A stretch of DNA of 64,000 bases from Candidatus Magasanikiibacteriota bacterium. Its GTDB lineage: Bacteria > Patescibacteriota > Patescibacteriia > Magasanikbacterales > UBA922. Made by a program: the position numbers and the translations under genes. Numbering within the stretch: position 1 is the first letter of the stretch; each line of letters opens with the position of its first letter. Under the pieces are notes generated by a model. The model was not told the DNA's origin and did no database searches. It was given only the letters and a program-made list of their open reading frames with translations. This document shows, one piece after another, positions 8,299-47,652 of this stretch. The DNA lies in the NCBI GenBank assembly GCA_018652595.1, contig JABIBU010000013.1, positions 93,043 through 157,042 of the forward strand, read 5' to 3'.

Positions 8299-8316
8299 TT
8301 CATTTAAATTAGTCTG

Positions 8317-9078: not shown

Positions 9079-9129
9079 ATGTAATTTATTAAATATGATT
9101 TATTTCGTCTGTATATACTATCATCTAGC

Positions 9130-29517: not shown

Positions 29518-30208
29518 ATCTTAATTTTAAAATTGTAATAACATAAGTTATAGCAAATAAAAATAAATTTCTCTTTGTCTTACCAAATTCTCTTTTTTTA
29601 AATGTGTATGGCAATTCAAGAAATTTTATACTTTTATTTTTTTTCTTCAACTTAAACATTATCTCCTCTACAATATCAAAGTTATTGCAATTTAGAGACA
29701 AGTCTTTTAGTTGGTCTGATCTATACAATTTAAAACTGTTAGAAACATCTTTGCATTTCAAATTTAATATTGATGAATATAAAATATTAATAGCAAGGCT
29801 CATCAAAATCAAAATTTTGCTATTTTCAGTATTACCACCCTTTACATAACGGGAAGCAATAACAACATCAGCGTCGTTTCTATGAGAATAGAGTTTCTTT
29901 ATAAATTCAGGTGAATGCGAACCATCTGCATCCATAAAGACAAAAAATTCTCCTGTTGCATTTTTTATACCAGTCCTTATCGCGTCTCCATAATTATTTC
30001 CATTATCTCTATTTAGATAGACTACAGAATTATCTAAGCAGATATCTTTTGTGTCATCCATTGCGCGCAATGTATCCACAACTATAATCTCATAATTTAT
30101 ATTTAGTTGATTCAACCCATCTTTTATTTTGGGTAATATAACAGATAAATTTTCTGCTTCTTGATAAGCTGGTAGGACTACACTAAGTTTTATTATTTTA
30201 TTTTCCAT
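29507..30208 (-). CDS. GT2 polyprenol-phosphate glycosyltransferase (GtrB/DPM1-like)
   Basis: LSVVLPAYQEAENL...VVDT...FMDADGSHSP. Confidence 0.8.
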   Translation of the reverse strand: MENKIIKLSVVLPAYQEAENLSVILPKIKDGLNQLNINYEIIVVDTLRAMDDTKDICLDNSVVYLNRDNGNNYGDAIRTGIKNATGEFFVFMDADGSHSPEFIKKLYSHRNDADVVIASRYVKGGNTENSKILILMSLAINILYSSILNLKCKDVSNSFKLYRSDQLKDLSLNCNNFDIVEEIMFKLKKKNKSIKFLELPYTFKKREFGKTKRNLFLFAITYVITILKLRFGK

Positions 30209-30216
30209 AAACTATT

Positions 30217-31245
30217 TTAAAATATCTTATTATCTGTTATCCATTTTAGCATACTTCTTATTCCTTCCTTTTTGCCAACTTTTGGTTTCCACCCTAAAAA
30301 TCTTTCTATCTTACTAATGTCAGCGATAAAGACCTTTTGATCACTCTCTCTTGGTGGTAAATTTGTATATTTTAATTTTACCCCCAACTCTTCTTCCAAA
30401 ATATCAAAAAGCTCTAACAACGATAGACTATTTTCAACTCCCCCACCAATATTAAATACTTGCCCCTTAATCTTTTCAATATTTTTTGCAGCCAAAAAAT
30501 AAAGATCCACCATATCATCTGCATGCAAAACATCTCTAACCTGCTTACCATTACCAGATATTGTAAAAGGCTCTCTTTGTGGATTTTCTTTTGTGGAAAC
30601 TGCCTGTGCACAAAACCAACCTATCCAGCCCTGATCTTTACTTGAAAATTGACGAGATCCATACATTGAAGAATGTCTCATAACTGCAGTTTTTATACCA
30701 AATACTTTATTATAATCTAAAATATACTGATCAGCAGAACCTTTTGAGCATCCATAAGGAGATGCGAAGGATAATCCAATATTTTCATCAAAACCATCAG
30801 AAAAATCTAAGGACTTATATCTCCTTTCTTCTTCTACAAAATTAATATGTTCCAAGTCACCATAGACCTTGTTGGTTGAAGAATATATAACTGCTGTACT
30901 AGAGCTATGCTTTCTTATTGCCTCAAGTAAATTTAAAGTGCCTAATGCGTTTGTATTAAAATCTAATAGTGGATCTTCTATTGAAGATGTCATTGCAACT
31001 TGTCCGGCAAAATGAAATACTACATCTGGCCTCTCATCAATTATTACTCTCTCTATTTCACCATACTTACTAATATCACCCTGAACAAAAGTAAAATCAC
31101 CCAATGTATTTAACCATTCTAAATTTTTTTCTGACCCAAATCTAGATAAATTATCAAAAATAATTAATTCGTCACCTTTTTGTAAAATTTCTTTTGATAG
31201 GTTTGACCCCAAAAAACCACAGCCTCCGGTTATTAAATACTTCAT
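30217..31245 (-). CDS. CDP-paratose 2-epimerase (tyvelose epimerase RfbE)-like SDR
   Basis: MKYLITGGCGFLGSNL...HFAGQVAMT...IYSSTNKVYGDLE...SPYGCSKGSADQY...HSSMYG.RQF...DQGWIGWF...FTISGNGKQVRDVLH tracks Salmonella RfbE block by block (recalled, not searched). Confidence 0.7.
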   Translation of the reverse strand: MKYLITGGCGFLGSNLSKEILQKGDELIIFDNLSRFGSEKNLEWLNTLGDFTFVQGDISKYGEIERVIIDERPDVVFHFAGQVAMTSSIEDPLLDFNTNALGTLNLLEAIRKHSSSTAVIYSSTNKVYGDLEHINFVEEERRYKSLDFSDGFDENIGLSFASPYGCSKGSADQYILDYNKVFGIKTAVMRHSSMYGSRQFSSKDQGWIGWFCAQAVSTKENPQREPFTISGNGKQVRDVLHADDMVDLYFLAAKNIEKIKGQVFNIGGGVENSLSLLELFDILEEELGVKLKYTNLPPRESDQKVFIADISKIERFLGWKPKVGKKEGIRSMLKWITDNKIF

Positions 31246-31251
31246 AACTTT

Positions 31252-32148
31252 TTATATTATACTTTTTAACTCAAAATCAAGTGTTTTTTTTATCCCATCT
31301 TCCAAAGAAGTTCCGCACTCCCAACCAAATTTCTTAATTGCGCTTGTGTCTGCTATGCACTCCATTACTTCGTGTTTTCTATATGGCAATGCTCCAAAAT
31401 TCAAAACTGTTTTATTAAGAGGTAATAATTCTTTCATCATTTCCACAAGCTTTCTAATTGTAACAGCCTTATTACTTCCAATTTCAAAATAATAAAAATC
31501 AGAACTAAAACTATCTAAGTTCTCCAAAATTGTCATAAAGGCATTCACCACATCATCTACGAACACAAAGTCTCTTTTTTGCTCGCCCTTAGTCAAATCT
31601 ATATTATCTACACCTTCTACAAGCTTACGAAGTATGTTTGAGACAAATTTAGTACTATCGTCTCCGGGACCATAAAAATGTTCTAATGCAATATTGATGC
31701 ACACTAAGTCATTTTTATAACTAGTTAGCCAATCCTTAAATTGCCTTTTTGATAAGGAGTAATTATTTATTCTTTTATCAAGGATAGTATCTGTGTTTAT
31801 AAAATATGTTACACCATTTTCTCTTCCAAGCTCCAGCAAGCTCAACGGCAACAATAAATTGGCCTCGAGTGTGTGTATTGGATCTCTACCCTTTCTTCCA
31901 TAGTCAGTTGCACAATGTAAAATAATATCTATTTTATTTTCTTCAAAAATCTTTCTCAATTTTGTCTCGTCTGTATTATAAGTCTTTATTTTATCTATAT
32001 ATTCATCAATTCTAAACGTATTTGAAAAAGATCTCTTCAAAACTATAATAGAATACCCCTTATAAATTAATTTTTTTAAGATACTACTACCAAGATATCC
32101 AGTAGCCCCCGTCAATAAAATTACTTTTTTATCTTTTTCCATATACAA
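31252..32148 (-). CDS. CDP-3,6-dideoxyhexose synthase-like SDR (RfbS/RfbJ-like 4-ketoreductase)
   Basis: LLTGATGYLGSSI, LEHFYGPGDDSTKF and TKGEQKRDFVFVDDVVNAFMTILEN resemble CDP-abequose/paratose synthases (recalled). 298 aa. Confidence 0.55.
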   Translation of the reverse strand: MYMEKDKKVILLTGATGYLGSSILKKLIYKGYSIIVLKRSFSNTFRIDEYIDKIKTYNTDETKLRKIFEENKIDIILHCATDYGRKGRDPIHTLEANLLLPLSLLELGRENGVTYFINTDTILDKRINNYSLSKRQFKDWLTSYKNDLVCINIALEHFYGPGDDSTKFVSNILRKLVEGVDNIDLTKGEQKRDFVFVDDVVNAFMTILENLDSFSSDFYYFEIGSNKAVTIRKLVEMMKELLPLNKTVLNFGALPYRKHEVMECIADTSAIKKFGWECGTSLEDGIKKTLDFELKSII

Positions 32149-32153
32149 ATATA

Positions 32154-33089
32154 TTACTCAATATGTGCTATAACCTGACTTATATATTTCTCGTCACAAC
32201 AATCTTCCGGATCTCTTTCGTTTATTTCATTAAAATACTTATGTGAGACCTTTATTTGCTTGTCTGCCTTTCTCAAAAACATTTCGTACTCCATGTCTAT
32301 ATGACCGATATCTACAACACGATAACCCAGCAAGAACAAATCATAAGCCAAGACTTTTGCCGTTGGCCCAAGAGAAAGTAATATGAGTTTATCCTTATCT
32401 ATTTTCAAGGCTTCATTTTTTATTTTTTCGTATTTATCATAAGCACTTTCAGGTGGACATAAGATCCTTTGCAAAGACTTTACACTATCAAACATATCAT
32501 TGCCAACACCCAAACGACTTTTTGAACCTTCAACAAGCACTACATCTTTATTCGCCCAAATAGAAAATAATTTTTTAAAAACATATGCAGAGTTTGACCT
32601 ATCAACGTATGCCAAATAAGGACGGGTCATATTGGTATCACCATATTTTTTTTTGTAAGACAGTAGTTTTTTCCACACATGCCCATGTCTATACAAGTGA
32701 TGCATATTAAACCAATATGCGTAACTCTTGAATCCATTCAATTTTTCCCAAATACCTGGAATACATATTAATAGACCATCTCTGTTGCTTTTCAAAATTA
32801 GTTCTAATTTTCTAGACAATTCTTCATTTGTTTTCTGAAAAGCAAGCGTCAAATTATCTATTAAAGAAATTTCTCCATCCCCAAACCTAATTACAGACAT
32901 ATTTTTTTCTACTACCAAATCTACAGTCTCTGGAATAGAGAGCACATCTGGACGTTTTCGTTTTTTTCTTAAATAGACATTGAATACGTACAATACAAAT
33001 GCAATGACAGGGCCTATCTTTTGTCTAATGCCAAGTGGTGTAAAATCTCTCAATTTTTGAATAAAATTTTGTATTAATGATTTTTTCAT
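32154..33089 (-). CDS. GT-D-fold glycosyltransferase (DUF1792 family)
   Basis: RFGDGE motif near the N-terminus and the overall size match the DUF1792/GT-D family. Confidence 0.5.
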   Translation of the reverse strand: MKKSLIQNFIQKLRDFTPLGIRQKIGPVIAFVLYVFNVYLRKKRKRPDVLSIPETVDLVVEKNMSVIRFGDGEISLIDNLTLAFQKTNEELSRKLELILKSNRDGLLICIPGIWEKLNGFKSYAYWFNMHHLYRHGHVWKKLLSYKKKYGDTNMTRPYLAYVDRSNSAYVFKKLFSIWANKDVVLVEGSKSRLGVGNDMFDSVKSLQRILCPPESAYDKYEKIKNEALKIDKDKLILLSLGPTAKVLAYDLFLLGYRVVDIGHIDMEYEMFLRKADKQIKVSHKYFNEINERDPEDCCDEKYISQVIAHIE

Positions 33090-33101
33090 AATATATTTGA
33101 T

Positions 33102-33941
33102 TTAAGAATCAAAATCTTTTAACAGATCTTCTTTTGACAGACTATACTTTTCTTCTATGCTTTCTAAAGTAATGTTATTTTCAAGCTCAAAGAGTCTGGC
33201 ATACGCCATCAATCTAAAAAATGCGTAACTCAGTATAATTATTATACCAAGCCTACCACTTCTCCAGCCTCTCTTTCCATAAATCCAAATATAACGCAAC
33301 ATAGCAGCGAGCATTCGAATAATGCTAAATTTTTTTTCTAAAAGATATTTTTCAGCTGCCTCAGCTTCAGCATATCGCAAATGTCCAATCACAAATTTAT
33401 TTATACTATATGTACTAAAATGCTTCAATGCATATTTTTCTTTATTTGGAAGCTTGAGTTTTTGATCTTTTGAGCCCAAAAACTGTCCCATTCCATGAAT
33501 GTAATTCTCTTTATAATTTATGAAATCTTTATGAAACAAAAATGGTGAATATGCTTTTTGTATATAGTTATCTGTATTACCCCACAAATATGTATATAGA
33601 GGTACGAGTACATATTTATATTTATCTTGCATAGAAATCTCAATCATTTTTTCCACCAAACTTTTTGGAGCAATATTATCAACATACCCCCAATAAATCC
33701 AATCAGTATTCAGATTTGATTTTAAAAAATCAAAATTTTCCTGTGTTTCAACCTGAGGCTTTTTGCTTGGCGGCCTCGAGAGAAATCTAGCCCCAAGCGA
33801 TTCAGCGATCTCTTGTGTTTTATCAGTACTACCGCCATCCATCAATATTACCTCACCACACTTAATAAAATTCCTAATAGCATAGGAAATTCTTTTTTCC
33901 TCGTTATAAGTAAACAAAACAAATGTAATATTATTATTCAT
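33102..33941 (-). CDS. GT2-like glycosyltransferase with a C-terminal membrane segment
   Basis: ITFVLFTYNEEKRI...LMDGGSTDKT N-terminal GT-A half, with a hydrophobic C-terminus. Confidence 0.5.
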   Translation of the reverse strand: MNNNITFVLFTYNEEKRISYAIRNFIKCGEVILMDGGSTDKTQEIAESLGARFLSRPPSKKPQVETQENFDFLKSNLNTDWIYWGYVDNIAPKSLVEKMIEISMQDKYKYVLVPLYTYLWGNTDNYIQKAYSPFLFHKDFINYKENYIHGMGQFLGSKDQKLKLPNKEKYALKHFSTYSINKFVIGHLRYAEAEAAEKYLLEKKFSIIRMLAAMLRYIWIYGKRGWRSGRLGIIIILSYAFFRLMAYARLFELENNITLESIEEKYSLSKEDLLKDFDS

Positions 33942-33943
33942 AT

Positions 33944-34855
33944 TTATAATTTTCCAAATAACCTCTTTATAAAATCACGAACATTCTGACTTCTAAATAA
34001 GTACTTTCTCAAAACACTAATGATCCAGGTTTTAAATAAATTAATTACTTGCTTTATTTTTAAGATCCATTTAGAATATTTTAACTCGTATGTATCGAGG
34101 ATCCACATTTGCAATTTGGATGTAGACTCTGCGCGCTTCGATAAAGTTTCTAATCCAGGAAAAACATCCCAGCGAATATTGGCAGCACGAACCTTAATTA
34201 GAGGCTTTGAAATAATTGCAAAACGCCTACCTTTCATAGCAGACAACAAAATATACACATGCACGGCATTAGAACCCACATGTTCAGTTTTGTTTTTCAA
34301 AGATTTCCAAAATTCTCTTTTAAATAATTGCATAGAAAGCCCGCAAAATTGACCGACTAGATCATTTTTTTTCATCTCTGATACGCGATCATCTACTAAT
34401 TTATAATATTGATTTGATTCAATAATAAAATTAGGCTGTGACACAGAGGGCTTACTTAGCGAATTATTATAACCCAGACAATTAACTATACAATAATCAA
34501 ACTTATCCAATTTTAACTCCTCTAGCATGTGCTCTAGTGCGCCCTCAAACAAAGCATCGTCATCTCCCAAAAACCAAACAAAGTCACCTTTTGCTTTTTC
34601 TACAACATTTATTATATTCCGATCTACTCTTATATTCTCTGAATTTCTATAATAAAAAATATTTGAATAATCCCTTTGAAATTCATTTACAATTTTTTCA
34701 GTATTGTCCGTGCTTGCATTATCTGATATTACAATCTCAACACTCTCTCGTACGACAGAATCTTCGAACTGCAAAACAATGCTATTTAGACATTGTCTCA
34801 AGCATTCATCGCGATTATAAGTCGGTATACATATACTGATAATAGGATTGTTCAT
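33944..34855 (-). CDS. GT2-family glycosyltransferase
   Basis: ISICIPTYNRDECL...ISDNASTDNT...DDD. Confidence 0.75.
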   Translation of the reverse strand: MNNPIISICIPTYNRDECLRQCLNSIVLQFEDSVVRESVEIVISDNASTDNTEKIVNEFQRDYSNIFYYRNSENIRVDRNIINVVEKAKGDFVWFLGDDDALFEGALEHMLEELKLDKFDYCIVNCLGYNNSLSKPSVSQPNFIIESNQYYKLVDDRVSEMKKNDLVGQFCGLSMQLFKREFWKSLKNKTEHVGSNAVHVYILLSAMKGRRFAIISKPLIKVRAANIRWDVFPGLETLSKRAESTSKLQMWILDTYELKYSKWILKIKQVINLFKTWIISVLRKYLFRSQNVRDFIKRLFGKL

Positions 34856-34883
34856 TTTATTTAAAGATTAAAATTAAAAATCT

Positions 34884-35894
34884 CTATGCTTTATCTTTCC
34901 TTATCTTGTCTATTAGTACTTGAACTTTATGCCCCTCCACAAATGAGGGTAATATTTGTTCCTTGTTATTACACCCTACAACAAATCTAGTTGCTATTTT
35001 TCTAACAGTATCAACTCTTTCATCTTCTTCGTTATCTATTTTAACTTTTTTATCCTCCACAAGGATCCTTTTTGATTCTTCTTTGGTATAAATATTTATA
35101 GTAAAATTTTCAGTTACACTATTTTTGTTTTCCAAAATAATTTTACCTTTTTCACATTCAAATATTAGTTGGTGCCTATTTAAGCCTGCATTGCTTGCAT
35201 TAATATGAGCACTACCATCAACTCCATTTTTAAATTTTATAATTATATCTAGGCCAGATTCTCCTCCATTGGCACTGCCATCTGAATAAGAGAAAGAGCT
35301 CTTTACATCTAGTATTTCACCGGCATAATATTCCAAATAATAGAGCGAATGAGAAAAATAAAAAGACAGCGCACCTCCACCCTCATTTATATCTGTCTTC
35401 CATGAAGAAATGCCGTTTTTTATATCATAACTCAAAAAATCCCAATTCACAGAAACATGCTTTAACTTTCCGTAAGTATCCTGATCTAGCATTTTTTTTA
35501 CTTCTTGCCATGCCTTTATTTCCGGAAAAATAAAATCGACTGCATGCACGATACCATTCTTTTCTGCCAGATCCAGAAGTTCTTTTGTTTGCTCTTGATT
35601 TAAAGCAAGTGGTTTTTCAGCAAATATATTTATTTTCTTTTTTATTGCAACCCTTGCTATTTCATACTGAGTTCTTGGTCTAACTGCAATTGCCAAAGCA
35701 TCTAGGTCTTCGTTTTTCAGCATATCTTTCCAATCTGTATAAACATTATCCAAATTTATGCTTTTGCAGTATTTCAATAAACGATCTGTTTTCTTTCCAC
35801 AAATAGAAACCACATGACAATCATTTATATCACTGAATGCAGGAAGCAGTCCATAAAGACCAAATCCTGAACCAATTATACCTACTTTTAACAT
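34884..35894 (-). CDS. Gfo/Idh/MocA-family NAD(P)-dependent oxidoreductase
   Basis: N-terminal Rossmann motif KVGIIGSGFG and a length of 336 aa. This family is common in sugar 3-oxidation and amination steps. Confidence 0.65.
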   Translation of the reverse strand: MLKVGIIGSGFGLYGLLPAFSDINDCHVVSICGKKTDRLLKYCKSINLDNVYTDWKDMLKNEDLDALAIAVRPRTQYEIARVAIKKKINIFAEKPLALNQEQTKELLDLAEKNGIVHAVDFIFPEIKAWQEVKKMLDQDTYGKLKHVSVNWDFLSYDIKNGISSWKTDINEGGGALSFYFSHSLYYLEYYAGEILDVKSSFSYSDGSANGGESGLDIIIKFKNGVDGSAHINASNAGLNRHQLIFECEKGKIILENKNSVTENFTINIYTKEESKRILVEDKKVKIDNEEDERVDTVRKIATRFVVGCNNKEQILPSFVEGHKVQVLIDKIRKDKA

Positions 35895-35903
35895 AAATTA
35901 ATA

Positions 35904-37184
35904 TTATACATCTTCATTTTTTACTATTTCAAAGTCTGGCAATGGTATTACAAAATCGGACTTCAACCCCCTTGCCTTCAATTGTTCCATTATTGGCTTG
36001 GCATAATGCCAAGCCAAAATAATAACATAGTCAGGCTGTTCATCGATAAGGATCTGATTGTTAACCACAGGAATATGCTTGCCCGGCAAATATTTGCCCA
36101 ATTTGAGCGATGCTGGCTGTTCTGCTAAGTATGGTAGTAATTCTGTGCCTACTCCATAATAATTTAATAGAGTTGAACACCTGCCAGGACATGAATTTCC
36201 CACTATACTCTTCCCTTCCCTATTGGTGCTGATCAAAAAATCCATAAACTTTAGACGGGCCATCTTTACTCGATCTGCAAATTTCTGAAATGTTTCTAGT
36301 TTTCCAAGACCTGATGCATCTTCTAAAGCAAGCAAATCAGTCACCGCTTGGCTCACAGGCCTCCCCTTTCCTTTGGTAACATGAACACGAATATTTCCAC
36401 CATATCTATCGCCTCTTTCTACATCAGTCACAGTAAAGTCGTATTGATCAAACAGAGCCACAAGAGCACGCAATGAATAGGTGCGCAGATGTTCGTGGTA
36501 GACTGTATCAAACTGCCCACCTTCAACCACATTCAAAAGATAGTGGGTCTCAGAGACAAAAACCCCATCTTCTTTTAAGAGTGTATATGCACCCATAATA
36601 ACCTCTCCCAAGGTCTGCATATGTGCAAATGTATTTGTAGTCACAATGACAGACGCTTCTCCATGCTTTTCCTTAATCATTTCGGCGGTCTTAATATCAA
36701 AGAAAGATTGAACTGTCTCAATACCCCTTTCATTTGCAAACTTTGCAATATTTGTAGGTTCGACACCAATAGTTTTAATACCAGTACCCTCAAAACCACT
36801 GAGCAAAGTCCCATCATTTGCACCGACATCAACCACTAAATCACCCTCTTGAAGATTATATTTATTGATAAGTGATTCGGCAATCTTTACTTGGTATTCC
36901 ACCAATTCTTTTGTCACACCACTCTTGTATGGATAGTCTGGATGATAGACCTCTTTACCATCGACACAGTAATCTATCTGAGCGTCAGTACAATTTTCAC
37001 ACCAAATCATACGAAGTGGAAAAGTTTTTTCTGGCTGATCAAGCATTTCTTTTGTCAAAAGTGTGTCACATAAAGGCTGATGCCCAAGATCAAGTATGGT
37101 GTGCAATTTATCTGAATTACAAACTTGACACCTGCTAATGTGCCCAGTTTTTATATCGTGATGTTCTGGATAGTTTAGACTCAT
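35904..37184 (-). CDS. NDP-hexose C-methyltransferase (Zn ribbon + class I SAM MTase + C-methyltransferase C-terminal domain)
   Basis: CQVCNS...CENC zinc ribbon, the SAM motif VVDVGANDGTLL, and a C-terminal domain as in TylCIII-type sugar 3-C-methyltransferases. Confidence 0.7.
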   Translation of the reverse strand: MSLNYPEHHDIKTGHISRCQVCNSDKLHTILDLGHQPLCDTLLTKEMLDQPEKTFPLRMIWCENCTDAQIDYCVDGKEVYHPDYPYKSGVTKELVEYQVKIAESLINKYNLQEGDLVVDVGANDGTLLSGFEGTGIKTIGVEPTNIAKFANERGIETVQSFFDIKTAEMIKEKHGEASVIVTTNTFAHMQTLGEVIMGAYTLLKEDGVFVSETHYLLNVVEGGQFDTVYHEHLRTYSLRALVALFDQYDFTVTDVERGDRYGGNIRVHVTKGKGRPVSQAVTDLLALEDASGLGKLETFQKFADRVKMARLKFMDFLISTNREGKSIVGNSCPGRCSTLLNYYGVGTELLPYLAEQPASLKLGKYLPGKHIPVVNNQILIDEQPDYVIILAWHYAKPIMEQLKARGLKSDFVIPLPDFEIVKNEDV

Positions 37185-37231
37185 AAAATTAATATTAAAT
37201 TAAGTTAAATTATTTTTTATTATTTAAGTTT

Positions 37232-38542
37232 TCAAGTTTTATTCATATTTTTTATAAATTCATTAAATTCATTTACTATATAATTCAGCATATCCTTGGA
37301 CAACCCAGGATGAACACCGATCCAAAAAGTATTAGTCATTACAAGATCAGTATTAACAAGATTATCTACAATCCTATATTTAATATTCTTTTCCACAAAA
37401 TAAGGTTGTTTTATAACGTTGCCGGCAAATAGAAGCCGTGTACCAATTTTCTTTTCATTTAAATGTTTTATTAAATCATCCCGTGTAAAACCCGCATCAT
37501 CTTTCACTGTCAAAAGAAAACCAAACCAACTAGACTCAGCCTTATCCGACCAACTAGGAAGAATAAAATAGTCTTCGTGTTTTTTTAATTTCTCATAAAG
37601 ATAGTCAAAATTGTCTCTTCTCTTTTGTATAAAATCCTCCAGTTTATCCAATTGTGCAACACCTAGAGCAGCCTGTATATCGGTCACCTTCAAATTATAA
37701 CCCATCTCAGAATAAATATATTTATGATCATACCCAAGAGGTAAATTGCCAAGCTTCCAAGAAAAACGTCTTTTACATGTATCATCCATACCTGTTCTAC
37801 ACCAGCAATCCCTACCCCAATCACGAATTGATTTAATTATGCGATATAGCAAAGCATCATCTGTAAACACAGCTCCACCCTCCCCCATAGTAATATGGTG
37901 TGCGGGATAAAAACTACATGTAGCCACATGTCCAAATGTACCTGTTTTTTTACCATCATACACAGAACCTAGAGCATCACAATTGTCTTCTACAAACCAA
38001 AGACCATGCTCTTCGCACAACTCGGCTATCTTATCCAACTCGCAAGGATTTCCCAAAGTATGTGCCAAAAAAATTGCTCGTGTTTTTGGGCCAATTGCTT
38101 TTTTTAATTTCTCTATATTTATATTGTATGTACCCAAATCAACATCTACAAAAACAGGAACCAAACCATTTTGAACTATAGGATTCACTGTTGTTGGAAA
38201 TCCTGCCGCAACACTAATAACCTCATCACCTGGTTTCAGTCTCCTATCCTTTAGCTTTGCAGACATCAGGGCAGAAAAAGCAACTAAATTTGCAGATGAA
38301 CCTGAATTAACTATAGCTGTAAACTTTACCCCCAACCACTCACTAAGCCTTTTTTCAAATAAATCTGAAAATCTTCCCTCTGTCCACCACCCGTCCAAAA
38401 CTGCTTCGGTCATATTTAATATTTCCTTCTCATCAAATGTTTTACCAGAGACAGGAATAAAAGATTCTCCTGGTACAAATTCTTTGGGAGAAAATCTTTC
38501 TTTGTATTCTTCTCCCAATAATTTTTTTAAGTTATCATTCAT
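37232..38542 (-). CDS. rfbH: CDP-4-dehydro-6-deoxyglucose 3-dehydrase E1 (RfbH/DdhC; PMP-dependent, DegT family)
   Basis: 436 aa. LKPGDEVISVAAGFPTTVNP, SFYPAHHITMGEGGAVFT and RDWGRDCWC...YDHKY..EMGYNLK are near-identical in pattern to Salmonella RfbH (recalled). Confidence 0.8.
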   Translation of the reverse strand: MNDNLKKLLGEEYKERFSPKEFVPGESFIPVSGKTFDEKEILNMTEAVLDGWWTEGRFSDLFEKRLSEWLGVKFTAIVNSGSSANLVAFSALMSAKLKDRRLKPGDEVISVAAGFPTTVNPIVQNGLVPVFVDVDLGTYNINIEKLKKAIGPKTRAIFLAHTLGNPCELDKIAELCEEHGLWFVEDNCDALGSVYDGKKTGTFGHVATCSFYPAHHITMGEGGAVFTDDALLYRIIKSIRDWGRDCWCRTGMDDTCKRRFSWKLGNLPLGYDHKYIYSEMGYNLKVTDIQAALGVAQLDKLEDFIQKRRDNFDYLYEKLKKHEDYFILPSWSDKAESSWFGFLLTVKDDAGFTRDDLIKHLNEKKIGTRLLFAGNVIKQPYFVEKNIKYRIVDNLVNTDLVMTNTFWIGVHPGLSKDMLNYIVNEFNEFIKNMNKT

Positions 38543-39425
38543 ACAAAAAATCTTTTTTATTTAATTTATTTAAAATAGTTTTATAATATTTTATCAACTC
38601 TAGCAATGATTGGTCTAGTTCAGTATATTCTATATTTTTTAGCTCTGATTTTAATCTTGAGATATCACATGTATACTCTTTATTCAAGTCAGGTTTATTA
38701 ATTTTTATATCTTTTTCCTCATCTAAAACATATAAAATTCTATGAACTATTGACGACAGAGACACTCTCTCCCCCCTGCCTATATTATAAAATTTGTGCT
38801 TTGTCTTTTCATTTTCAATAAAATATCCTAAAATTTTTACAAAATCATTCACATACAAATAGTCGAAATAAGTGTCTTGATTCATTGTTACAGGAAGACC
38901 TAGCAATACTTTGCAGATAATATTTGAAATAAATCTAGTTTTATAATCTTCATATTTCCCATAAACCCCAAACAATCTCAGGTGGGTAATGAAGCTAGCT
39001 TCCTCACAGTATTTTGCACATACATATTTATAAAAACCATATGGATCTTCTGGTACAGATTTATCAAAATCAGATTCTCTTATATTTTTTAATTCTTGTT
39101 GTTTATTATATTCTGCACCAGAACCTAAGAAAATCATCCTCTTGTACATTTTTTTTGCCCTAACTAGATTGAAAAACATTTTTAAATTATCCAATACAAT
39201 ACCTGGATTATCTTTCTCATTTCTAGCAACGCCCACTGCTGCTGCATGAATTACAATATCTACTTTTTCTTTTTTTAAAAAATTATAAACCAAGCTAGTG
39301 TCTAATAAATTTAATTCTTTACTATTTGGTGCCAGTATTTCGTACTTATCTCCCAATAGCTCAACTATATTTCTACCAAAAAAACCACTACCACCGGTTA
39401 AAAGAATTTTAATTTTCTTTTTCAT
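38535..39425 (-). CDS. NAD(P)-dependent sugar epimerase/reductase (SDR)
   Basis: ILLTGGSGFFGRNIV, YxxxK (YKYVCAKY), and 296 aa. Confidence 0.6.
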   Translation of the reverse strand: MKKKIKILLTGGSGFFGRNIVELLGDKYEILAPNSKELNLLDTSLVYNFLKKEKVDIVIHAAAVGVARNEKDNPGIVLDNLKMFFNLVRAKKMYKRMIFLGSGAEYNKQQELKNIRESDFDKSVPEDPYGFYKYVCAKYCEEASFITHLRLFGVYGKYEDYKTRFISNIICKVLLGLPVTMNQDTYFDYLYVNDFVKILGYFIENEKTKHKFYNIGRGERVSLSSIVHRILYVLDEEKDIKINKPDLNKEYTCDISRLKSELKNIEYTELDQSLLELIKYYKTILNKLNKKDFLYE

Positions 39426-40335
39426 ATATTTCCTTTATTATACCGACCACATTAGAGGTGGATAGACCAGACACACCTCTTAAATAATCTTGTCTGCCTA
39501 TTAATTTTGGGTACTCGTCATTAATTCCAATTCTTTTAAAACTGCATTTTTTATCAGATTCAGCAATAACCTCGGACACTGCACTACCCAGACCTCCTAT
39601 GTAGCTGTGTTCTTCAAGGGTGATAATAATTTTTCTATTGGAAATTAAATTCTCTATCAAGTCTACATCCAGTGGTTTTAAGGTGTGAAAACTAATTACT
39701 TCTACGTCAATCTTATCATTTTTAAGCAATTGGGCGGCTTCTAGAGCAATTTCTGTAATAGAACCTGTGGACAATATACTAACTTCTTTACCTTCTCGTA
39801 AAATACGCCCCTTACCAAAACTAATTTCTTTATTTTTTGAACTTAAATTTTCTTCACCACCCCTATTCAATCTAATAAAAAAAGGGCCTTTGTTTTTAAT
39901 AATATATTCTATTAATTTTTCTGCCTCCAAAGGATCTGCTGGAGATATAATTTTCATATTTGGCAAAACACGCATCACTGCTATATCCTCAATAGAATGA
40001 TGTGTGGCACCCAAAGTGCCGTAAGCAAAACCAGCACCAACCCCCACAACCGTTACATCCAAATTTTGATAACAAATATCAACTCGTATTTGTTCCAAAC
40101 AGCGCATAGTCACAAAAGGCATTATTGAATAAATAAAAACTTTTTTACCCTGCAAGGCTAATCCAGCGGCAACACCAACCATATTTTGCTCAGAAATACC
40201 GACATTAAAGACCTGCTCTGGTAATTCATTTTGAAAATCTTCTATAACTGAAAAACCCAAATCTGCCGTTAAAAAAATAATATTTTTATTCTTCCTGGCA
40301 GCCTCATGAATTGTATTTATAACCGTATTTCTCAT
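39409..40335 (-). CDS. Transketolase, C-terminal (pyrimidine-binding + C-terminal domain) subunit
   Basis: About 308 aa matching the C-terminal half of split transketolases (IFLTADLG...GISEQNMVGVAAG...GATHHSIEDIA). Confidence 0.8.
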   Translation of the reverse strand: MRNTVINTIHEAARKNKNIIFLTADLGFSVIEDFQNELPEQVFNVGISEQNMVGVAAGLALQGKKVFIYSIMPFVTMRCLEQIRVDICYQNLDVTVVGVGAGFAYGTLGATHHSIEDIAVMRVLPNMKIISPADPLEAEKLIEYIIKNKGPFFIRLNRGGEENLSSKNKEISFGKGRILREGKEVSILSTGSITEIALEAAQLLKNDKIDVEVISFHTLKPLDVDLIENLISNRKIIITLEEHSYIGGLGSAVSEVIAESDKKCSFKRIGINDEYPKLIGRQDYLRGVSGLSTSNVVGIIKEIYEKEN

Positions 40336-41144
40336 ATTTTTTCTAATTCACTAATTGCCATTTTATACTCTTCTTCATTAGGGCTTTTGTAATGCCACTT
40401 GATCTTATCCTCCATAAAGGATACACCTTTACCTTTCACAGTATTGGCAATTAAGACTGAGGGCTTTTCTCCCTTTTTTTGAGAAAAAGAAGTTAATTGA
40501 GTATCTAGCGCATTTAAATCATGCCCATCAACTTCTTTTACATCCCAACCAAAAGACTCCCATTTTTTAGCCATTTCATTCATATTAATAATATTATCAG
40601 TTTTTCCCAAACCCTGTTGCTTGTTAACATCTACGATTAAAATAATATTTTTAAGTTTAAACTGGCTACAAAACATAGCAGCCTCCCAAACTGAACCCTC
40701 ATTACACTCTCCATCACCCAAAATACAATAAAATTTTCTATTATTATATCTATTTGCCAAGGCCATACCAGCTGTCATGGATAAACCATGCCCCAAAGAA
40801 CCAGCAGTAGCCTCTACTCCAGATAGGCAATCTTTTATTACATGCCCAGCTATTTTTGAACCATTTTCACAAAAACCTTCCAAATTACTTATAGGAAAAA
40901 ACCCCCTCAAAGCCAAGGTGGAATACAGTGCTGCAGCAGCGTGCCCCTTACTCAATACAAAAATATCCCTATCTTCAAAATTTGGTTTTGATGGTTTGAT
41001 ATTCATTACTTGAAAATATAAGACAGTCAGTATGTCAATAATACTAAAACACGAACCAATATGAGAACTCTTCGACTTATAAATCATCTCTAATACCTGT
41101 CGTCTAATCTCCGAAGTCTTAATTTTTAATTCTTTTTTATTCAT
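40332..41144 (-). CDS. Transketolase, N-terminal ThDP-binding subunit
   Basis: GHAAAALYS...GSLGHGLS...LGDGECNEG (ThDP motif GDG-x-N). Start set at MNKKEL to avoid a 58-nt overlap with the upstream gene. Confidence 0.8.
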   Translation of the reverse strand: MNKKELKIKTSEIRRQVLEMIYKSKSSHIGSCFSIIDILTVLYFQVMNIKPSKPNFEDRDIFVLSKGHAAAALYSTLALRGFFPISNLEGFCENGSKIAGHVIKDCLSGVEATAGSLGHGLSMTAGMALANRYNNRKFYCILGDGECNEGSVWEAAMFCSQFKLKNIILIVDVNKQQGLGKTDNIINMNEMAKKWESFGWDVKEVDGHDLNALDTQLTSFSQKKGEKPSVLIANTVKGKGVSFMEDKIKWHYKSPNEEEYKMAISELEKI

Positions 41145-42102
41145 GTCCAAAATATTTTTTATACCAATTATAGGTCTCTTTAATACTATCTTCAAAGCTA
41201 CTCTTTGCTTTCCAATTTAAAACTTTTTCTGCTTTATCATAATTTAAACTTTGAGCTGGAATCTCATTTGTTTGATTATTTACTATTTTATAATCAATTT
41301 TTTCTTCCAAAACCGCCCCCATCTTCTCAATCAAATCTAATACAGAAAAATTATAACCGGAACTAAAATTGAAAGCTTCGCCTTTTGATTTGTCTATTTG
41401 TTCAGCAAGTTGAATATAGCCATCTACCACATCCTTTACATAAACATAATCGCGAACAAAAGTACCATCGCTTCTTAATTCCAAAGTACTCTTATCTAAA
41501 ACAGACTTCACAACCCCTGGTATAATACGATTCATATTCAAATCTCCAGGACCATAGATATTCCCGAACCTACTAACTGTTACGGGTAAATCGTAAGTAT
41601 TGTGATATGCCAAAGAAATCAAATCAGCACAAGACTTTGAAACATCGTATGGATGGTCACCGCCCATAGCATTTTCTTCTGTGGCATCTGTACAATCCTT
41701 GCCATATGCTTTGTCACTAGAAGCAACCACCAATGCCTTAACTCTGGGAGACATTTTGACTGCCTCTAGAATATTTACTGTACCCATTACATTGGTACTA
41801 ATAGCTTCATAAGGATTGATCACTGCGGTTGGCACTATAGCTTGGGCGCCTATATGAAATACATAATCAATTTCATATTTTGTTACTACATTCATAATTC
41901 TTTCTTTATCATTCAAGTCACCGTATGCACAAACAACACTCTCATCCAATTTGTTCATATAAAAATATGAACTAGGGTCCTTACTACGAACCAGACAAAC
42001 TATTTTATAAGGTTTCAATTTCAAAAGCTCTTCCACCAAGTGAGAGCCAACCAAACCAGTCGCTCCTGTTATCAAAATATTTTTTCCTGTTAGATTTGAC
42101 AT
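41137..42102 (-). CDS. CDP-glucose 4,6-dehydratase-like SDR (RfbG/DdhB-like)
   Basis: ILITGATGLVGSHL, STNVMGTVNILEA and SSDKAYG resemble RfbG blocks (STNVMGT, SDKCYDN). Confidence 0.65.
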   Translation of the reverse strand: MSNLTGKNILITGATGLVGSHLVEELLKLKPYKIVCLVRSKDPSSYFYMNKLDESVVCAYGDLNDKERIMNVVTKYEIDYVFHIGAQAIVPTAVINPYEAISTNVMGTVNILEAVKMSPRVKALVVASSDKAYGKDCTDATEENAMGGDHPYDVSKSCADLISLAYHNTYDLPVTVSRFGNIYGPGDLNMNRIIPGVVKSVLDKSTLELRSDGTFVRDYVYVKDVVDGYIQLAEQIDKSKGEAFNFSSGYNFSVLDLIEKMGAVLEEKIDYKIVNNQTNEIPAQSLNYDKAEKVLNWKAKSSFEDSIKETYNWYKKYFGHE

Positions 42103-42117
42103 AAAAAAATTATTATA

Positions 42118-42906
42118 TTAATTCCAAACTTTCCAAAAAGGATTTTTTGCCCAAAGTTCGTTCATCTCCTCGACCTCTTTATAATTGTCCATGCATTTCC
42201 ATCTTCCTGGACTATTATAAACCATGACCTGACCATCTTTGGCGAGTTTTGAGAAAACACTTTCAATCATACTATCATCTTCGATAAAATCAAAGATATC
42301 TCTTCTAAATACCATAAACCCCCCATTAATAAGATCCTTTGCGCCTTCATTTTCATCCTCTGTAGTGACATTGTGTTGTGCAAAGTTAATCACTTTACTA
42401 TCAGCATCAATATTTAAAAAACCAAAACGAGTAGCCGGCTTCACTCCAGTAATGGTCGCCACAAGACCGTGCTCTTTGTGAAATTCAACAAGTTTAGAAA
42501 TATCTATATCAGCAACACCATCACCATAAGTAACCATAAAATGCTCGTCATTGCCTATATATTTTTTCAGACGCTTGATACGCTCACCTGTTAAACTTTT
42601 TAAACCTGTCTCTGCGAGAGTAACATTAAAATCATCGCAATGATTATTATGCATTACCATATCACCTGTCTTGGTGTTTAGGGTAAAATCATTAACAAAG
42701 GTACGCTCATGTAAGAAATAATCTTTTATCAGATCACCCTTATACCCCAAGGCCAATATAAAATCATTGAAACCATAGTGAGCATATATTTTCATAATAT
42801 GCCACAATATTGGCTTGCCACCTACCGATACCAATGGTTTTGGCTTAAACTCTGTCTCCTCCTTCATACGTGTGCCTGTTCCCCCACACAAAATTATTGT
42901 TTTCAT
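42118..42906 (-). CDS. rfbF: Glucose-1-phosphate cytidylyltransferase (RfbF/DdhA)
   Basis: MKTIILCGGTGTRMKEE...KPKPLVSVGGKPILWHIMKIY...TYGDGVADIDI...INGGFMVF parallels Salmonella RfbF throughout (recalled). Confidence 0.8.
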   Translation of the reverse strand: MKTIILCGGTGTRMKEETEFKPKPLVSVGGKPILWHIMKIYAHYGFNDFILALGYKGDLIKDYFLHERTFVNDFTLNTKTGDMVMHNNHCDDFNVTLAETGLKSLTGERIKRLKKYIGNDEHFMVTYGDGVADIDISKLVEFHKEHGLVATITGVKPATRFGFLNIDADSKVINFAQHNVTTEDENEGAKDLINGGFMVFRRDIFDFIEDDSMIESVFSKLAKDGQVMVYNSPGRWKCMDNYKEVEEMNELWAKNPFWKVWN

Positions 42907-42922: not shown

Positions 42923-43792
42923 TTATTTTTTTAAAATTATATCCCACTGATCTTTGCCTAGAATAATCTGACCCAGTAAGAGACTTTTTATTAGACGGAA
43001 TAGTCTTTTTTTCTCTGACCAGTCAAACTTTTTTATTAAACTAATAATATTTTCATTTCCTGCTCTCACTGCTTTTTTATTTAAAATTTTTAAGCCACTT
43101 TTTTCACAAATATAATCAATTGATCCTGAAGAAAAGAAATTTAAATGACCAAATGGCAATACCATGCCCCATTTACCTTTCATCATCCTGGCTTTCAAAC
43201 AATCTTTATTAGGAAAATTTAAATATATGATTGCATCCTCGTTCGCTACTTTACTTACTTTTTTTATCATAGACTTTGGATCAGCAACGTGCTCTAAAAC
43301 ATCCCCAAAAACTATAATATCAAACCTAACACCCACTGGTAAATCATTTACATCTTGGACAACTTTCAATTTTTCACTTTTTCCCCACCATCCTGGCTCA
43401 ACACCATATGACATATCCGCCCTTTCAGAAAAATACTTCAACAAATTTCCACTTCCACATCCTATTTCTAAATAATTAAACTCGGTTTTATCAATACACC
43501 TAGTCAGTCTTGAGAAAATTTTCTCAGCATAAATATTATCAGGAGATGTCCCACTATAACCAGGTGGATAAACTACAAATCCAGAACCCTCTCCATACCA
43601 CTTCGATAATACTTCTTGTCTTGGCATAGGATCAATCCACCAATGACTACAGATACTACACTCACGTAAACTTACCTTGTCATCGCAATTTTTATTTATA
43701 ATTTGTACATAATTATCAATAATTTTTGATTTACCAGAACAAACTGTACAATCTACTTGGGCTATTAACCAACTATTATCTATCTTGTCCAT
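42923..43792 (-). CDS. Class I SAM-dependent methyltransferase with an N-terminal Cys-rich zinc ribbon
   Basis: CTVCSG...CSICSHWW followed by LEIGCGSGNLL and DIIVFGDVLEH. Confidence 0.65.
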   Translation of the reverse strand: MDKIDNSWLIAQVDCTVCSGKSKIIDNYVQIINKNCDDKVSLRECSICSHWWIDPMPRQEVLSKWYGEGSGFVVYPPGYSGTSPDNIYAEKIFSRLTRCIDKTEFNYLEIGCGSGNLLKYFSERADMSYGVEPGWWGKSEKLKVVQDVNDLPVGVRFDIIVFGDVLEHVADPKSMIKKVSKVANEDAIIYLNFPNKDCLKARMMKGKWGMVLPFGHLNFFSSGSIDYICEKSGLKILNKKAVRAGNENIISLIKKFDWSEKKRLFRLIKSLLLGQIILGKDQWDIILKK

Positions 43793-43842: not shown

Positions 43843-44685
43843 TTATTTTATATAATCAATTAAGGCTTCTTGCCAATTGCGTAATACTGGCACATTTATT
43901 TCTTTCAATCTTTTGTTTTCCAAAATAGAATTTTGTGGTCTTTTTATTTTTGTCCCACTCTCACTTGTCTTTATTGGAATAGGAGCAGATTCAATCTTAG
44001 AAAATTCTAATATTTTATTTGCAAATTCATACCAGGAACAATGCCCACTATTCGTTATGTGATAAACTCCAGGCTCAGCATCTAATACTATCAATTCATT
44101 TATTTTTTTTGCTAGATCATTTGTATATGTTGGAGAGCCAATCTGATCTTCCACTACTCTAATTTCTTCTTTTTCTCTGGCTTTCAAAATCATTGTCTTT
44201 ACAAAATTTTTCTCACTATTATCTTTATTATTACCAAAGAGCCAGCTCGTACGTATAATTAAATTATTTTCATTTGCCAACTGCACCATATATTCTCCAG
44301 ATAGTTTTGATGCACCATATACATTTAGGGGTCTTGGGCAATCTATTTCGGAAAAACTATTTTGGTCTCCACCAAACACATAGTCAGTACTTATGTGTAC
44401 AATTTTTGCTCCAAAATCATTAGATACTTTTGCAAGAAGATACGGCCCGAAAGCATTAACCCTATAAGCATCCTCTATACATTCTTCTGCTTGTTCCACC
44501 TTATTATATGCGGCACAATTTATCACAATATTAGGATTATATTTACCAAACACTTCTAGTATAGCGTCTTTATTTGTAATATCCAAACCGATCCTATCCA
44601 ATGCAATATAGTCTACTCCCAATCCAGAAAACAGCTGTTGCAATGCATTTCCAAGTTGTCCATTAGACCCAGTAATCAATATCAT
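43843..44685 (-). CDS. rmlD: dTDP-4-dehydrorhamnose reductase
   Basis: MILITGSNGQLG, VINCAAY, HISTDYVFGG and NVYGASKLSGE match the RmlD pattern. Confidence 0.8.
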   Translation of the reverse strand: MILITGSNGQLGNALQQLFSGLGVDYIALDRIGLDITNKDAILEVFGKYNPNIVINCAAYNKVEQAEECIEDAYRVNAFGPYLLAKVSNDFGAKIVHISTDYVFGGDQNSFSEIDCPRPLNVYGASKLSGEYMVQLANENNLIIRTSWLFGNNKDNSEKNFVKTMILKAREKEEIRVVEDQIGSPTYTNDLAKKINELIVLDAEPGVYHITNSGHCSWYEFANKILEFSKIESAPIPIKTSESGTKIKRPQNSILENKRLKEINVPVLRNWQEALIDYIK

Positions 44686-47013: not shown

Positions 47014-47652
47014 TTAGACTACGTTATAAATAAAATTCTCTGACCTAATATCTTTTGACCAATCCTGCAAAGATAGCCCATGCTTATCTCTATTGCCCAT
47101 TAAATAATCTTTACTTATAAATTCATCGAACTCTTTCTTTAGGTCTTTATCACATAGTGCCCAATCAATTCCTTTTGACAATGGGGAAATGCCTGCCTCA
47201 CCCTCTGGGTTATAATCTCCAGAAAAAAAGTATTCTATTGTACTATCCTCCAAAAAAAAGCTACCGTGTGCAATACCAGGTGGCAACCAAAGCCACTCAC
47301 CATAGTCCGAGCTACCATCAAATGGCATATCATATAGAATGATCTTCCCCTCTGTAGGAGAACCTTTTCTTATGTCTAGCATTATATCTACCATATGACC
47401 GGACACAGTTCTAATCAATTTTCCAAGAGCTGGCTCCCACTGAAAATGAAGCCCCTTAAGCACGCCTGCTTTTGAAAAATTCTCATTAAACTGAACAAAA
47501 TCAACATCTTTTAAAAACCCTAATTCTTTATTTTTTTTAATATCACTTTTTCTTAATATTTCAGAAAAATAACCCCGCTCATCCGCAAATCTTCCAAATC
47601 GGATCACTTGTACACCCGGTAATTCTAATTGTTTTACCTCAATTAATTTCAT
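47014..47652 (-). CDS. rmlC: dTDP-4-dehydrorhamnose 3,5-epimerase-like cupin (RmlC family)
   Basis: FADERGYFSE, KGLHFQ and KLIRTVSGHMVDIMLDIRKGSPTEGK parallel the RmlC blocks. Confidence 0.7.
   Translation of the reverse strand: MKLIEVKQLELPGVQVIRFGRFADERGYFSEILRKSDIKKNKELGFLKDVDFVQFNENFSKAGVLKGLHFQWEPALGKLIRTVSGHMVDIMLDIRKGSPTEGKIILYDMPFDGSSDYGEWLWLPPGIAHGSFFLEDSTIEYFFSGDYNPEGEAGISPLSKGIDWALCDKDLKKEFDEFISKDYLMGNRDKHGLSLQDWSKDIRSENFIYNVV

Follow-up and report, generated by a model that had tools for sequence, protein, structure and literature searches.

We analysed a window of 64,000 nucleotides (the whole stretch from position 93,043 to position 157,042 of contig JABIBU010000013.1) of a Candidatus Magasanikiibacteriota bacterium, a member of the candidate phyla radiation (CPR), and found in its glycan locus an operon in which a two-gene (split) transketolase lies among the genes of a CDP-3,6-dideoxyhexose trunk. 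As judged from its active-site residues and its gene context, this thiamine diphosphate (ThDP) enzyme is likely to extend an activated keto-sugar by a two-carbon branch. What is new is a candidate branching enzyme of the transketolase type whose genes stand with those of a CDP-sugar trunk in the primary glycan operon of a CPR member, together with a recognisable signature of its subfamily and a wide distribution of that subfamily, undescribed in the literature searched. The other elements of the operon, namely an E1 dehydrase without its E3 reductase, a tyvelose branch and a 3-C-methyltransferase, are of kinds already known. To our knowledge, only ThDP enzymes of the YerE type and of the pyruvate dehydrogenase E1 (PDH-E1) type have been shown to branch keto sugars.

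The glycan locus is a single long run of minus-strand genes at roughly 17.5-55.5 kb of the window. The open reading frame (ORF) coordinates showed that adjacent genes of the operon overlap or are at most 47 bases apart, so that they were taken as one operon, and every ORF listed by the first-pass annotation was recovered where it had been placed, on the minus strand and with domains that fit its label. The operon was compared with 80 genome loci from many phyla that carry the RfbH proteins closest to that of the window (52-68% identity; loci are numbered L below); 56 of these had at least 8 kb on either side of RfbH and made up the full-flank subset, and further loci came from a scan of metagenome contigs for the subfamily of the transketolase C subunit. 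The ORFs of the compared loci were scored by BLAST and with a hidden Markov model (HMM) of E3, and representatives were confirmed by Pfam.

The split transketolase is encoded by TKN (40332..41144, with an alternative longer ORF that has a TTG start and extends to 41195), for the N-terminal PP-domain subunit (Transketolase_N, 151.7 bits), and by TKC (39409..40335), for the C-terminal subunit made of a Pyr and a C domain (Transket_pyr and Transketolase_C). Among solved structures, the nearest to them is that of the genuine split transketolase of Carboxydothermus hydrogenoformans, TKN scoring 222 bits against its N chain (6yak) and TKC scoring 205 bits, with about 43% identity, against its C chain (6yaj). 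In E. coli numbering, TKN keeps the equivalents of His26, His66, His100, Asp155, Asn185 and His261 and a ThDP motif of the GDG-X-N type (LGDGE...DVN), and TKC keeps those of the cofactor-activating Glu411 (ISEQN), His473, Arg358 and Arg520; the donor-side histidines His26, His66, His100, His261 and His473 are all kept in the pair. Unlike the canonical enzymes, TKC has a glycine in place of His461, a threonine in place of Glu468 and a leucine in place of Asp469 (GEDG becoming GTLG), and the region of Ser385 is altered as well; the transketolases of E. coli, of human and of C. hydrogenoformans have both His461 and the GEDG motif with Asp469. The numbering follows a sequence of E. coli TktA, and the key substitutions were cross-checked by HMMER alignments to the split and human transketolases of the PDB. 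We take His461 to help bind the phosphate of the substrate, Asp469 to hydrogen-bond the C2-hydroxyl of an aldose acceptor, and His100 and His473 to select hydroxylated donors. The pattern of kept and lost residues suggests normal donor chemistry and a changed acceptor.

The same losses were found in nearly all of the subfamily members compared. Loss of His461 and of the GEDG motif was seen in 15 of 15 RfbH-linked homologs of TKC. Among the best 150 of the 50%-identity cluster representatives of 1.84 billion proteins, 145 have a glycine at the position of His461 and only 7 keep an aspartate at that of Asp469, with Glu411 and His473 essentially invariant; all 150 score at least 230 bits, compared with 205 bits for the best solved canonical transketolase. 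A Burkholderiales/Rhodobacterales subgroup (L020, L025, L039, L043, L048, L052, L059, L064 and L078) has a leucine at His100 of TKN, most of these transketolases also having a lysine for Arg520, and the subgroup may use a different donor, possibly pyruvate. Natural fusions of the non-canonical TKC were also observed, to a sugar C-methyltransferase (P0240), to a Zn-dependent alcohol dehydrogenase (P0143) and to class I methyltransferase domains (P0179 and P0186), and they point to tailoring of a side chain made by the transketolase.

In the window, the transketolase genes overlap the gene of the RfbG-like short-chain dehydrogenase/reductase (SDR) upstream and that of another SDR, SDR296, downstream, and RfbH is two genes away. 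Transketolase genes were found in 11 of the 56 full-flank RfbH loci, from several phyla, and the window proteins are up to 65% identical to their homologs. The cassette RfbF, short RfbG, TKN, TKC, SDR, RfbH was seen again in CPR contigs, and the order RfbF-RfbG-RfbH-TKN-TKC-SDR, with or without a leading E3, was found in Variovorax, Ideonella, Curvibacter, Paucibacter, Rubrivivax, Thiobacillus and a Rhodobacterales isolate; Geobacter sp. M21 carries a similar gene run. The subfamily is found in CPR bacteria, Proteobacteria, Chloroflexota, Acidobacteriota and others. Most of the loci read have an SDR gene next to the transketolase genes, and all the contexts read were glycan loci, whether E3 was there or not. 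One locus, L132, has genes for a PDH-E1-beta-like protein and a lipoyl-bearing 2-oxoacid dehydrogenase E2 acyltransferase (6909-9163) immediately upstream of a non-canonical TKN/TKC pair, a C-methyltransferase and an RfbF-like gene.

The pair could instead be a housekeeping pentose-phosphate transketolase or a 1-deoxy-D-xylulose-5-phosphate (DXP) synthase that is merely located in a glycan operon; the first of these had been raised by the first-pass annotation as an objection to its own proposal. Genes of central metabolism are often split or minimal in the small genomes of CPR bacteria, NCBI names TKC '1-deoxy-D-xylulose-5-phosphate synthase', and the best NCBIfam scores of the pair are against the transketolase and DXS models. 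These scores, however, fall well short of the equivalog cut-offs; TKC has lost the equivalents of His461 and of Asp469/GEDG, both genes overlap glycan neighbours, and glycan loci also house the homologs known from Proteobacteria, Chloroflexota, Acidobacteriota and further CPR bacteria. Free-living carriers are moreover expected to have a separate canonical transketolase. We rejected a housekeeping role, which appears very improbable, on the active-site substitutions and on the glycan synteny conserved across phyla. The window pair shares with canonical transketolases, including the split enzyme of C. hydrogenoformans, the two-gene split, the ThDP motif, the cofactor glutamate and the donor-side histidines; it differs from them by the Gly/Thr/Leu set at positions 461, 468 and 469 and by its glycan, rather than pentose-phosphate, context. 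Public annotation mislabels such genes as DXP synthase or as generic transketolase.

The trunk among which the transketolase lies had been proposed from the gene content and proved to be real. The RfbF-like glucose-1-phosphate cytidylyltransferase (42118..42906; NTP_transferase domain) scored 273.7 bits against TIGR02623, slightly below the cut-off of 300.25, and in 67 of 83 loci a homolog with 40-66% identity is the first gene of an RfbG/RfbH operon. The following gene encodes a short (321 aa) CDP-glucose 4,6-dehydratase-like SDR (41137..42102) whose best NCBIfam match, TIGR02622, is under its cut-off with 199.5 bits; its PDB matches include the CDP-glucose 4,6-dehydratases 1rkx and 1wvg, and its motifs SSDK and YDVSK are of the CDP type (SDK/YxxxK), unlike the TDE of RmlB. 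This short RfbG type (homologs 41-69% identical) is the sole dehydratase-like match in many RfbF/RfbH loci, and the window protein is 25-30% identical to the canonical long RfbG of other loci.

RfbH (37232..38542), the E1-type CDP-4-keto-6-deoxy-D-glucose 3-dehydrase dependent on pyridoxamine 5'-phosphate (PMP) and a [2Fe-2S] cluster, scored 697.2 bits against NF011936, compared with an equivalog cut-off of 423, and 572 bits against the E1 of Y. pseudotuberculosis (PDB 3bcx). Its H215 corresponds to His220 of E1, the active-site histidine that replaces the lysine of aminotransferases, in an invariant column within a motif identical in both proteins (YPAHHITMGE), and C188, C246, C248 and C256 align with the [2Fe-2S] ligands Cys193, Cys251, Cys253 and Cys261. 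Since the catalytic histidine and all four cysteines are kept, RfbH is of the E1 type and still needs an electron donor, for two electrons per turnover. It is, by its residues, not a dehydratase of the ColD type, which regenerates PMP by transamination, whereas E1 needs a reductant (PMC8987622). Proteins of the ColD kind were seen elsewhere: the RfbH-like proteins of L167 (5546-6772, minus strand), L099 (11635-12945, minus strand) and L096 (6254-7555, minus strand), 36-40% identical to RfbH, keep the catalytic histidine, are without three of the four Fe-S cysteines and are ColD-like, reductase-independent 3-dehydratases; they lie in loci of the RfbF type, presumably for CDP-sugars, adjoining a non-canonical transketolase. 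In the window, RfbF would supply CDP-D-glucose to all CDP branches, the short RfbG-like SDR would convert it to CDP-4-keto-6-deoxy-D-glucose, and RfbH would remove the 3-hydroxyl. We strongly infer that these three enzymes make CDP-4-keto-3,6-dideoxy-D-glucose.

Because C4 bears the only carbonyl of the trunk intermediates, a branch would be added there. TKN and TKC would form a ThDP-bound two-carbon carbanion, probably dihydroxyethyl-ThDP, with a ketose or hydroxypyruvate as its source; since the donor-side histidines are kept, the unit transferred is predicted to be glycolaldehyde. The carbanion would add to the C4 carbonyl of a CDP-4-keto sugar to give a 4-C-glycolyl (hydroxyacetyl) tertiary alcohol, and SDR296 (38535..39425), an epimerase-family SDR by Pfam, is a candidate for reducing the keto group of the side chain to a 1,2-dihydroxyethyl branch, a role like that of YerF and ErwF. 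In the yersiniose A and erwiniose systems, YerE and ErwE add ThDP-bound acyl anions at C4 and YerF or ErwF reduces the side chain (PMC12247030; PMC9306805). The window resembles these systems in its RfbF-RfbG-RfbH/E1 trunk and in having a ThDP enzyme followed by an SDR in the same operon position. It differs from them in that the ThDP enzyme is a heteromeric split transketolase rather than a single chain of the decarboxylase type, and in the absence of a linked E3. The donor predicted for the window, hydroxypyruvate or a ketol, would leave a glycolyl branch; theirs is pyruvate or a longer 2-oxo acid.

Comparison with related loci showed that the position of the transketolase can be held by a YerE-like enzyme. 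Homologs of SDR296 (38-56% identity) follow the TKC gene in L001, stand beside YerE/ErwE-like genes in the transketolase-less loci L005, L011, L018 and L038, and do so in L002 and L084 as well. The syntenic Magasanikbacteria locus L005 shares SDR296, RfbH, the RfbS-like and RfbE-like enzymes, a family 2 glycosyltransferase (GT2) and a large membrane protein with the window and has a YerE-like enzyme where the window has its transketolase. Single-chain proteins of the YerE type were present in 28 of the 80 genome loci, and no such protein (TPP_enzyme_N/M/C) was found among the window ORFs scanned.

Adding two carbons to a 4-keto sugar, as the first-pass annotation had suggested, stood up as the most parsimonious role for the transketolase in view of its context and of its acceptor-site changes. 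The supporting association that it had drawn, between two-subunit transketolases and two-carbon branching, goes back to untested proposals only, for miharamycin, amipurimycin and 13 Streptomyces clusters (PMC12247030). The enzymes proposed there resemble that of the window in their split architecture and in the keto-sugar acceptor proposed for them (PMC12247030), and the window pair likewise lies in a sugar-nucleotide modification cluster beside enzymes that form keto sugars. Of the known systems, YerE/YerF and ErwE/ErwF come nearest in function, and this proposed class comes nearest in protein family. This likeness is one of architecture: the Streptomyces genes belong to secondary-metabolite clusters of actinomycetes, that of the window to a primary cell-surface glycan operon with a CDP-sugar trunk, and the window set is spread far more widely, over CPR bacteria, Proteobacteria, Chloroflexota, Acidobacteriota and others. 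Our literature searches found nothing relevant that links a transketolase to rfbH, CDP-glucose or O-antigen.

Several points weigh against a transketolase that branches the product of RfbH. The roles given above to transketolase residues are taken from the yeast, E. coli and Geobacillus literature, and no E3 or ferredoxin that could supply RfbH with electrons was found in the window. Most metagenome loci of the transketolase subfamily are without RfbH, and their DegT-family neighbours are mixed, with 6 of the E1 type, 2 ColD-like (with the histidine and without the Fe-S cysteines) and about 20 lysine-type aminotransferases; the subfamily would therefore act on more than one keto sugar, and the acceptor need not be 3,6-dideoxy. 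In the CPR loci L002, L084 and L164 the transketolase stands alongside a complete ErwE/ErwI/ErwJ-like set, so that it cannot be a simple substitute for YerE. A 2025 review, finally, treats ketone-accepting split transketolases as proposed only, with no member characterised in vitro (PMC12247030). The sets of L002, L084 and L164 comprise a YerE/ErwE-like ThDP enzyme, a DmpG-like aldolase and a DmpF-like acetaldehyde dehydrogenase, to which L164 adds an HpcH aldolase.

Some of these observations fit a different acceptor, either CDP-4-keto-6-deoxyglucose, before or independently of RfbH, or a small non-phosphorylated aldehyde that would be turned into a ketol building block. The RfbH-less loci are in keeping with this, as are the order of the window operon, in which the transketolase genes come before RfbH, and the presence of ErwE/ErwI/ErwJ-like genes, which would build donors, next to the transketolase in the three CPR loci. 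In addition, E. coli transketolase engineered to have a hydrophobic residue for Asp469 accepts non-hydroxylated aldehydes. However, the transketolase is the sole ThDP enzyme in the window and in the Burkholderiales loci, where nothing else could attach a free ketol, and its genes directly adjoin RfbH in at least 10 loci. We consider a different acceptor unlikely, though worth keeping in view, and retain addition of a two-carbon branch on the RfbH-containing trunk as the better reading.

The absence of E3 on which the first-pass annotation had remarked was confirmed across the 64-kb window. None of the 54 ORFs scanned with Pfam (the glycan locus and nearly all other window ORFs of at least 100 aa) had a Fer2, FAD_binding_6 or NAD_binding_1 domain, an HMM built from 10 E3 proteins gave zero matches among six-frame window ORFs of 50 aa or longer with an E-value limit as loose as 10, and a scan of the window for ferredoxin motifs gave only a single, spurious, out-of-frame match. 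This absence does not set the operon apart, as had been thought. In the full-flank subset, a canonical Fer2-FAD-NAD E3 was found in 8 of 56 loci, a divergent FNR-like protein in 3 and neither in 45, which makes the absence of a linked E3 the rule in this RfbH clade; the CPR relatives L001, L002, L004 and L005 are likewise without one. Over all the compared RfbH genome loci a reductase was linked in 16 of 80 by E3 HMM and BLAST, about 80% being without, and together with the 11 of 56 of the full-flank subset this led us to discard the idea that a missing E3 is anomalous. A strict Fer2/FNR regular expression had under-detected E3-like proteins (9 found) and was replaced by BLAST and the HMM.

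RfbH would receive its electrons from a reductase encoded beyond the window or from a general ferredoxin or flavodoxin system. SpnQ, an E1-type enzyme of the forosamine pathway of spinosyn, runs on general ferredoxin or flavodoxin reductase pairs and is, like RfbH of the window, an Fe-S, PMP and histidine enzyme with no cognate reductase in its cluster (PMC8987622). SpnQ comes from an actinomycete and acts on a dTDP-2,6-dideoxy sugar, whereas RfbH of the window is a close E1 ortholog on a CDP-glucose trunk. Short FNR-like proteins of 229-247 aa, with NAD_binding_1 and no Fer2, were observed directly beside RfbH in L011 (11371-12060), L021 (11285-11974) and L041 (8483-9226) and may be a second, minimal class of E3-like reductase. 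The actinobacterial loci L063 and L067 also have an FNR-like protein, and in L063, which was checked with Pfam, Fer2 is C-terminal.

With E3 absent while RfbH keeps its Fe-S ligands, the transketolase itself might replace the reductase by oxidising a ThDP-bound ketol and passing the electrons to the [2Fe-2S] cluster of RfbH, and transketolase can indeed oxidise its ThDP intermediate with artificial acceptors. Its subunits, however, have no Fe-S or flavin domain; most transketolase loci are without RfbH, and most E3-less RfbH loci are without transketolase. L025, L048, L052 and L064 each have both the transketolase and a canonical E3, and in view of this co-occurrence and of the lack of any anticorrelation we rejected the transketolase as an E3 surrogate, which seems the least credible of the alternatives considered here.

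Two further modules of the operon bear on its products. The first comprises a homolog of Zn-ribbon NDP-4-keto-sugar 3-C-methyltransferases (C-MT, 35904..37184) and a Gfo/Idh/MocA oxidoreductase (34884..35894; GFO_IDH_MocA N and C domains) that we take for a 4-ketoreductase. The best PDB matches of C-MT were MtmC (4rv9, 246 bits), KijD1 and TcaB9, its Methyltransf_13/23/14 domains fit by sequence the Zn-ribbon 3-C-methyltransferases of the TcaB9/KijD1/MtmC/TylC3 type, and the active-site YHEH is kept (VYHEHL aligned to IYHEHL of MtmC). C-MT and its partner would turn CDP-4-keto-6-deoxyglucose into a 3-C-methyl-6-deoxyhexose. The two genes are usually paired, the Gfo/Idh/MocA gene directly following C-MT in L166 and in L167, where its product is 51% identical to that of the window. 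L166 is a standalone cassette of GT2, C-MT, Gfo, RfbF and RfbG-like genes with no transketolase or RfbH, and L167 has C-MT, Gfo, RfbF, TKN, TKC and SDR296 in one run near its ColD-like dehydratase. The conservation of C-MT is unusually high, with 75-89% identity over more than 100 protein clusters that come from Magasanikbacteria, Paceibacterota, Parcubacteria and Daviesbacteria, and its operon neighbours are much less conserved (up to 68% for RfbH and up to 65% for the transketolase).

A second Zn-ribbon sugar C-methyltransferase was observed elsewhere in the window, in a 769-aa fusion (44698-47007, minus strand) with a genuine RmlB, which passes the TIGR01181 cut-off with 388 bits and has the STDE motif. 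It is flanked by an RmlC-like epimerase (47014-47652), RmlD (43843-44685) and a methyltransferase (42923-43792), and no RmlA was found in the window. This region seems to hold a second pathway, based on dTDP, whose product would be an (O-methylated) 3-C-methyl-6-deoxy-L-hexose. Stand-alone homologs of the C-methyltransferase half, 37-40% identical, adjoin transketolase genes in L103, L132, L146 and L147.

The second module consists of an RfbS-like epimerase-family SDR (31252..32148, 298 aa), by synteny a candidate CDP-paratose synthase (4-ketoreductase), and of a homolog of the CDP-tyvelose (paratose) 2-epimerase (30217..31245, 342 aa). The latter scored 507.9 bits over its residues 1-337, the full length, against 9rl0 and 453.6 bits against 1orr, both CDP-tyvelose 2-epimerases. 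RfbS-like homologs (39-57% identity) come directly before a tyvelose-epimerase homolog in L005, L008, L020 and L055, the last being a classical E3-RfbF-RfbG-RfbH-S-E cluster. Owing to this close epimerase homology and to the RfbS-RfbE pairing seen in L055, the operon very probably also makes ordinary CDP-paratose and CDP-tyvelose, the reductase and the epimerase acting in turn, which goes against the first-pass proposal of a product unlike the classical tyvelose/paratose set. RfbS and RfbE were also considered as dedicated partners of branching enzymes; they were found in 4 of 6 loci, not above the background of about 50%, and no claim is made. The CDP-tyvelose pathway of Salmonella and Yersinia has RfbF, RfbH, RfbS-like and RfbE enzymes as the window does, RfbH and RfbE being highly similar to the solved enterobacterial enzymes; unlike that pathway, the window has no E3, a divergent short 4,6-dehydratase, and inserted transketolase-SDR and C-MT-Gfo modules. 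A GT2 gene (29507..30208; Glycos_transf_2) accompanies the RfbS/RfbE pair, and its homologs, 61-62% identical, directly follow the epimerase homolog in L002 and L005. Next to it lies a 913-aa ORF (26776-29517, minus strand) with no Pfam match and about 14 hydrophobic segments, whose homologs (32-36% identity) stand downstream of the RfbS/RfbE/GT2 module in L002, in two copies, and in L005; it may be a large membrane glycosyltransferase or polymerase.

The modules C-MT plus Gfo, RfbS plus RfbE and transketolase plus SDR occur separately in the compared loci, and for this reason several CDP-sugars are more likely than one doubly modified sugar. We predict as products tyvelose or paratose, a 4-C two-carbon-branched sugar and a 3-C-methyl-6-deoxyhexose, which the intervening glycosyltransferases would install. 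The overall picture of a multi-branch factory of CDP-sugars for a cell-surface glycan, with one trunk and three branches (tyvelose/paratose, two-carbon and 3-C-methyl), we hold with about even confidence.

The first-pass annotation had combined the C-methyltransferase and the transketolase on one sugar, which would require a single linear pathway to one CDP-3,6-dideoxyhexose with both a two-carbon branch at C4 and a C-methyl group. All the genes are in one translationally coupled operon, L095 has RfbH, a transketolase and a distant C-MT, and two observations tell against separate products: the natural fusion of TKC with a C-methyltransferase in P0240 and the unbroken run of L167 beside a 3-dehydratase. 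Against a single product, C-MT and Gfo stand with RfbF and RfbG alone in L166, the transketolase and SDR stand with RfbH and without C-MT in L001, L088 and L105, and none of the RfbH-linked genome loci with a transketolase had C-MT within 10 kb. The RfbS/RfbE-like enzymes, moreover, point to a separate, unbranched sugar, and known 3-C-methyltransferases act on 4-keto sugars, whereas branching at C4 destroys the 4-keto group. We therefore regard a single doubly modified product as doubtful, and the several-sugar reading is preferred.

Around the operon, the locus has genes for a flippase of the Wzx type, for a Wzy_C/TPR protein and for an initiating Bac_transf enzyme, as well as GDP-fucose genes and those of more than 10 glycosyltransferases. 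Between the Gfo/Idh/MocA and RfbS-like genes lie, by Pfam, two GT2 glycosyltransferases (33944-34855 and 33102-33941) and a GT-D glycosyltransferase (32154-33089), all on the minus strand, and this trio (32154..34855) was also found in the CPR loci L004 and L167 with 43-70% identity. Three further minus-strand ORFs were observed. A 715-aa fusion (22605-24752) of an Acyl_transf_3 membrane acyltransferase with an SDR resembling GDP-fucose synthase sits among genes of the GT10 and GT11 fucosyltransferase families. A 296-aa ORF (51449-52339), with no Pfam match and no homolog in the fetched loci, lies between those of GDP-mannose 4,6-dehydratase and GDP-fucose synthase, and a 1266-aa ORF (55655-59455) has likewise neither a Pfam match nor a homolog in the fetched loci.

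Branching of keto sugars by ThDP enzymes gives sugars with tertiary alcohols, which are chemically hard to make and which shape bacterial surface antigens. Roughly 150 or more similar sequence clusters provide a sequence signature and many candidate enzymes on a defined substrate trunk, with Geobacter sp. M21, Variovorax sp. PCZ-1, Ideonella azotifigens and Curvibacter cyanobacteriorum among the cultured carriers. If the assignment is true, glycolyl transfer would give alpha-functionalised tertiary alcohols of biocatalytic interest. We suggest tentatively, at somewhat less than even confidence in the whole, that these split transketolases form a third major class of ThDP enzymes for sugar C-branching, besides the YerE-type and the PDH-E1-like alpha/beta enzymes, that this class is marked by the loss of His461 and Asp469 and present in glycan loci of many phyla beyond Streptomyces, and that its product in the CPR bacterium would be an undescribed 4-C-glycolyl or dihydroxyethyl (di)deoxyhexose, in the same polymer as tyvelose and two 3-C-methyl sugars. 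The locus also indicates that CPR bacteria, their small genomes notwithstanding, invest in elaborate glycans rich in branched sugars.

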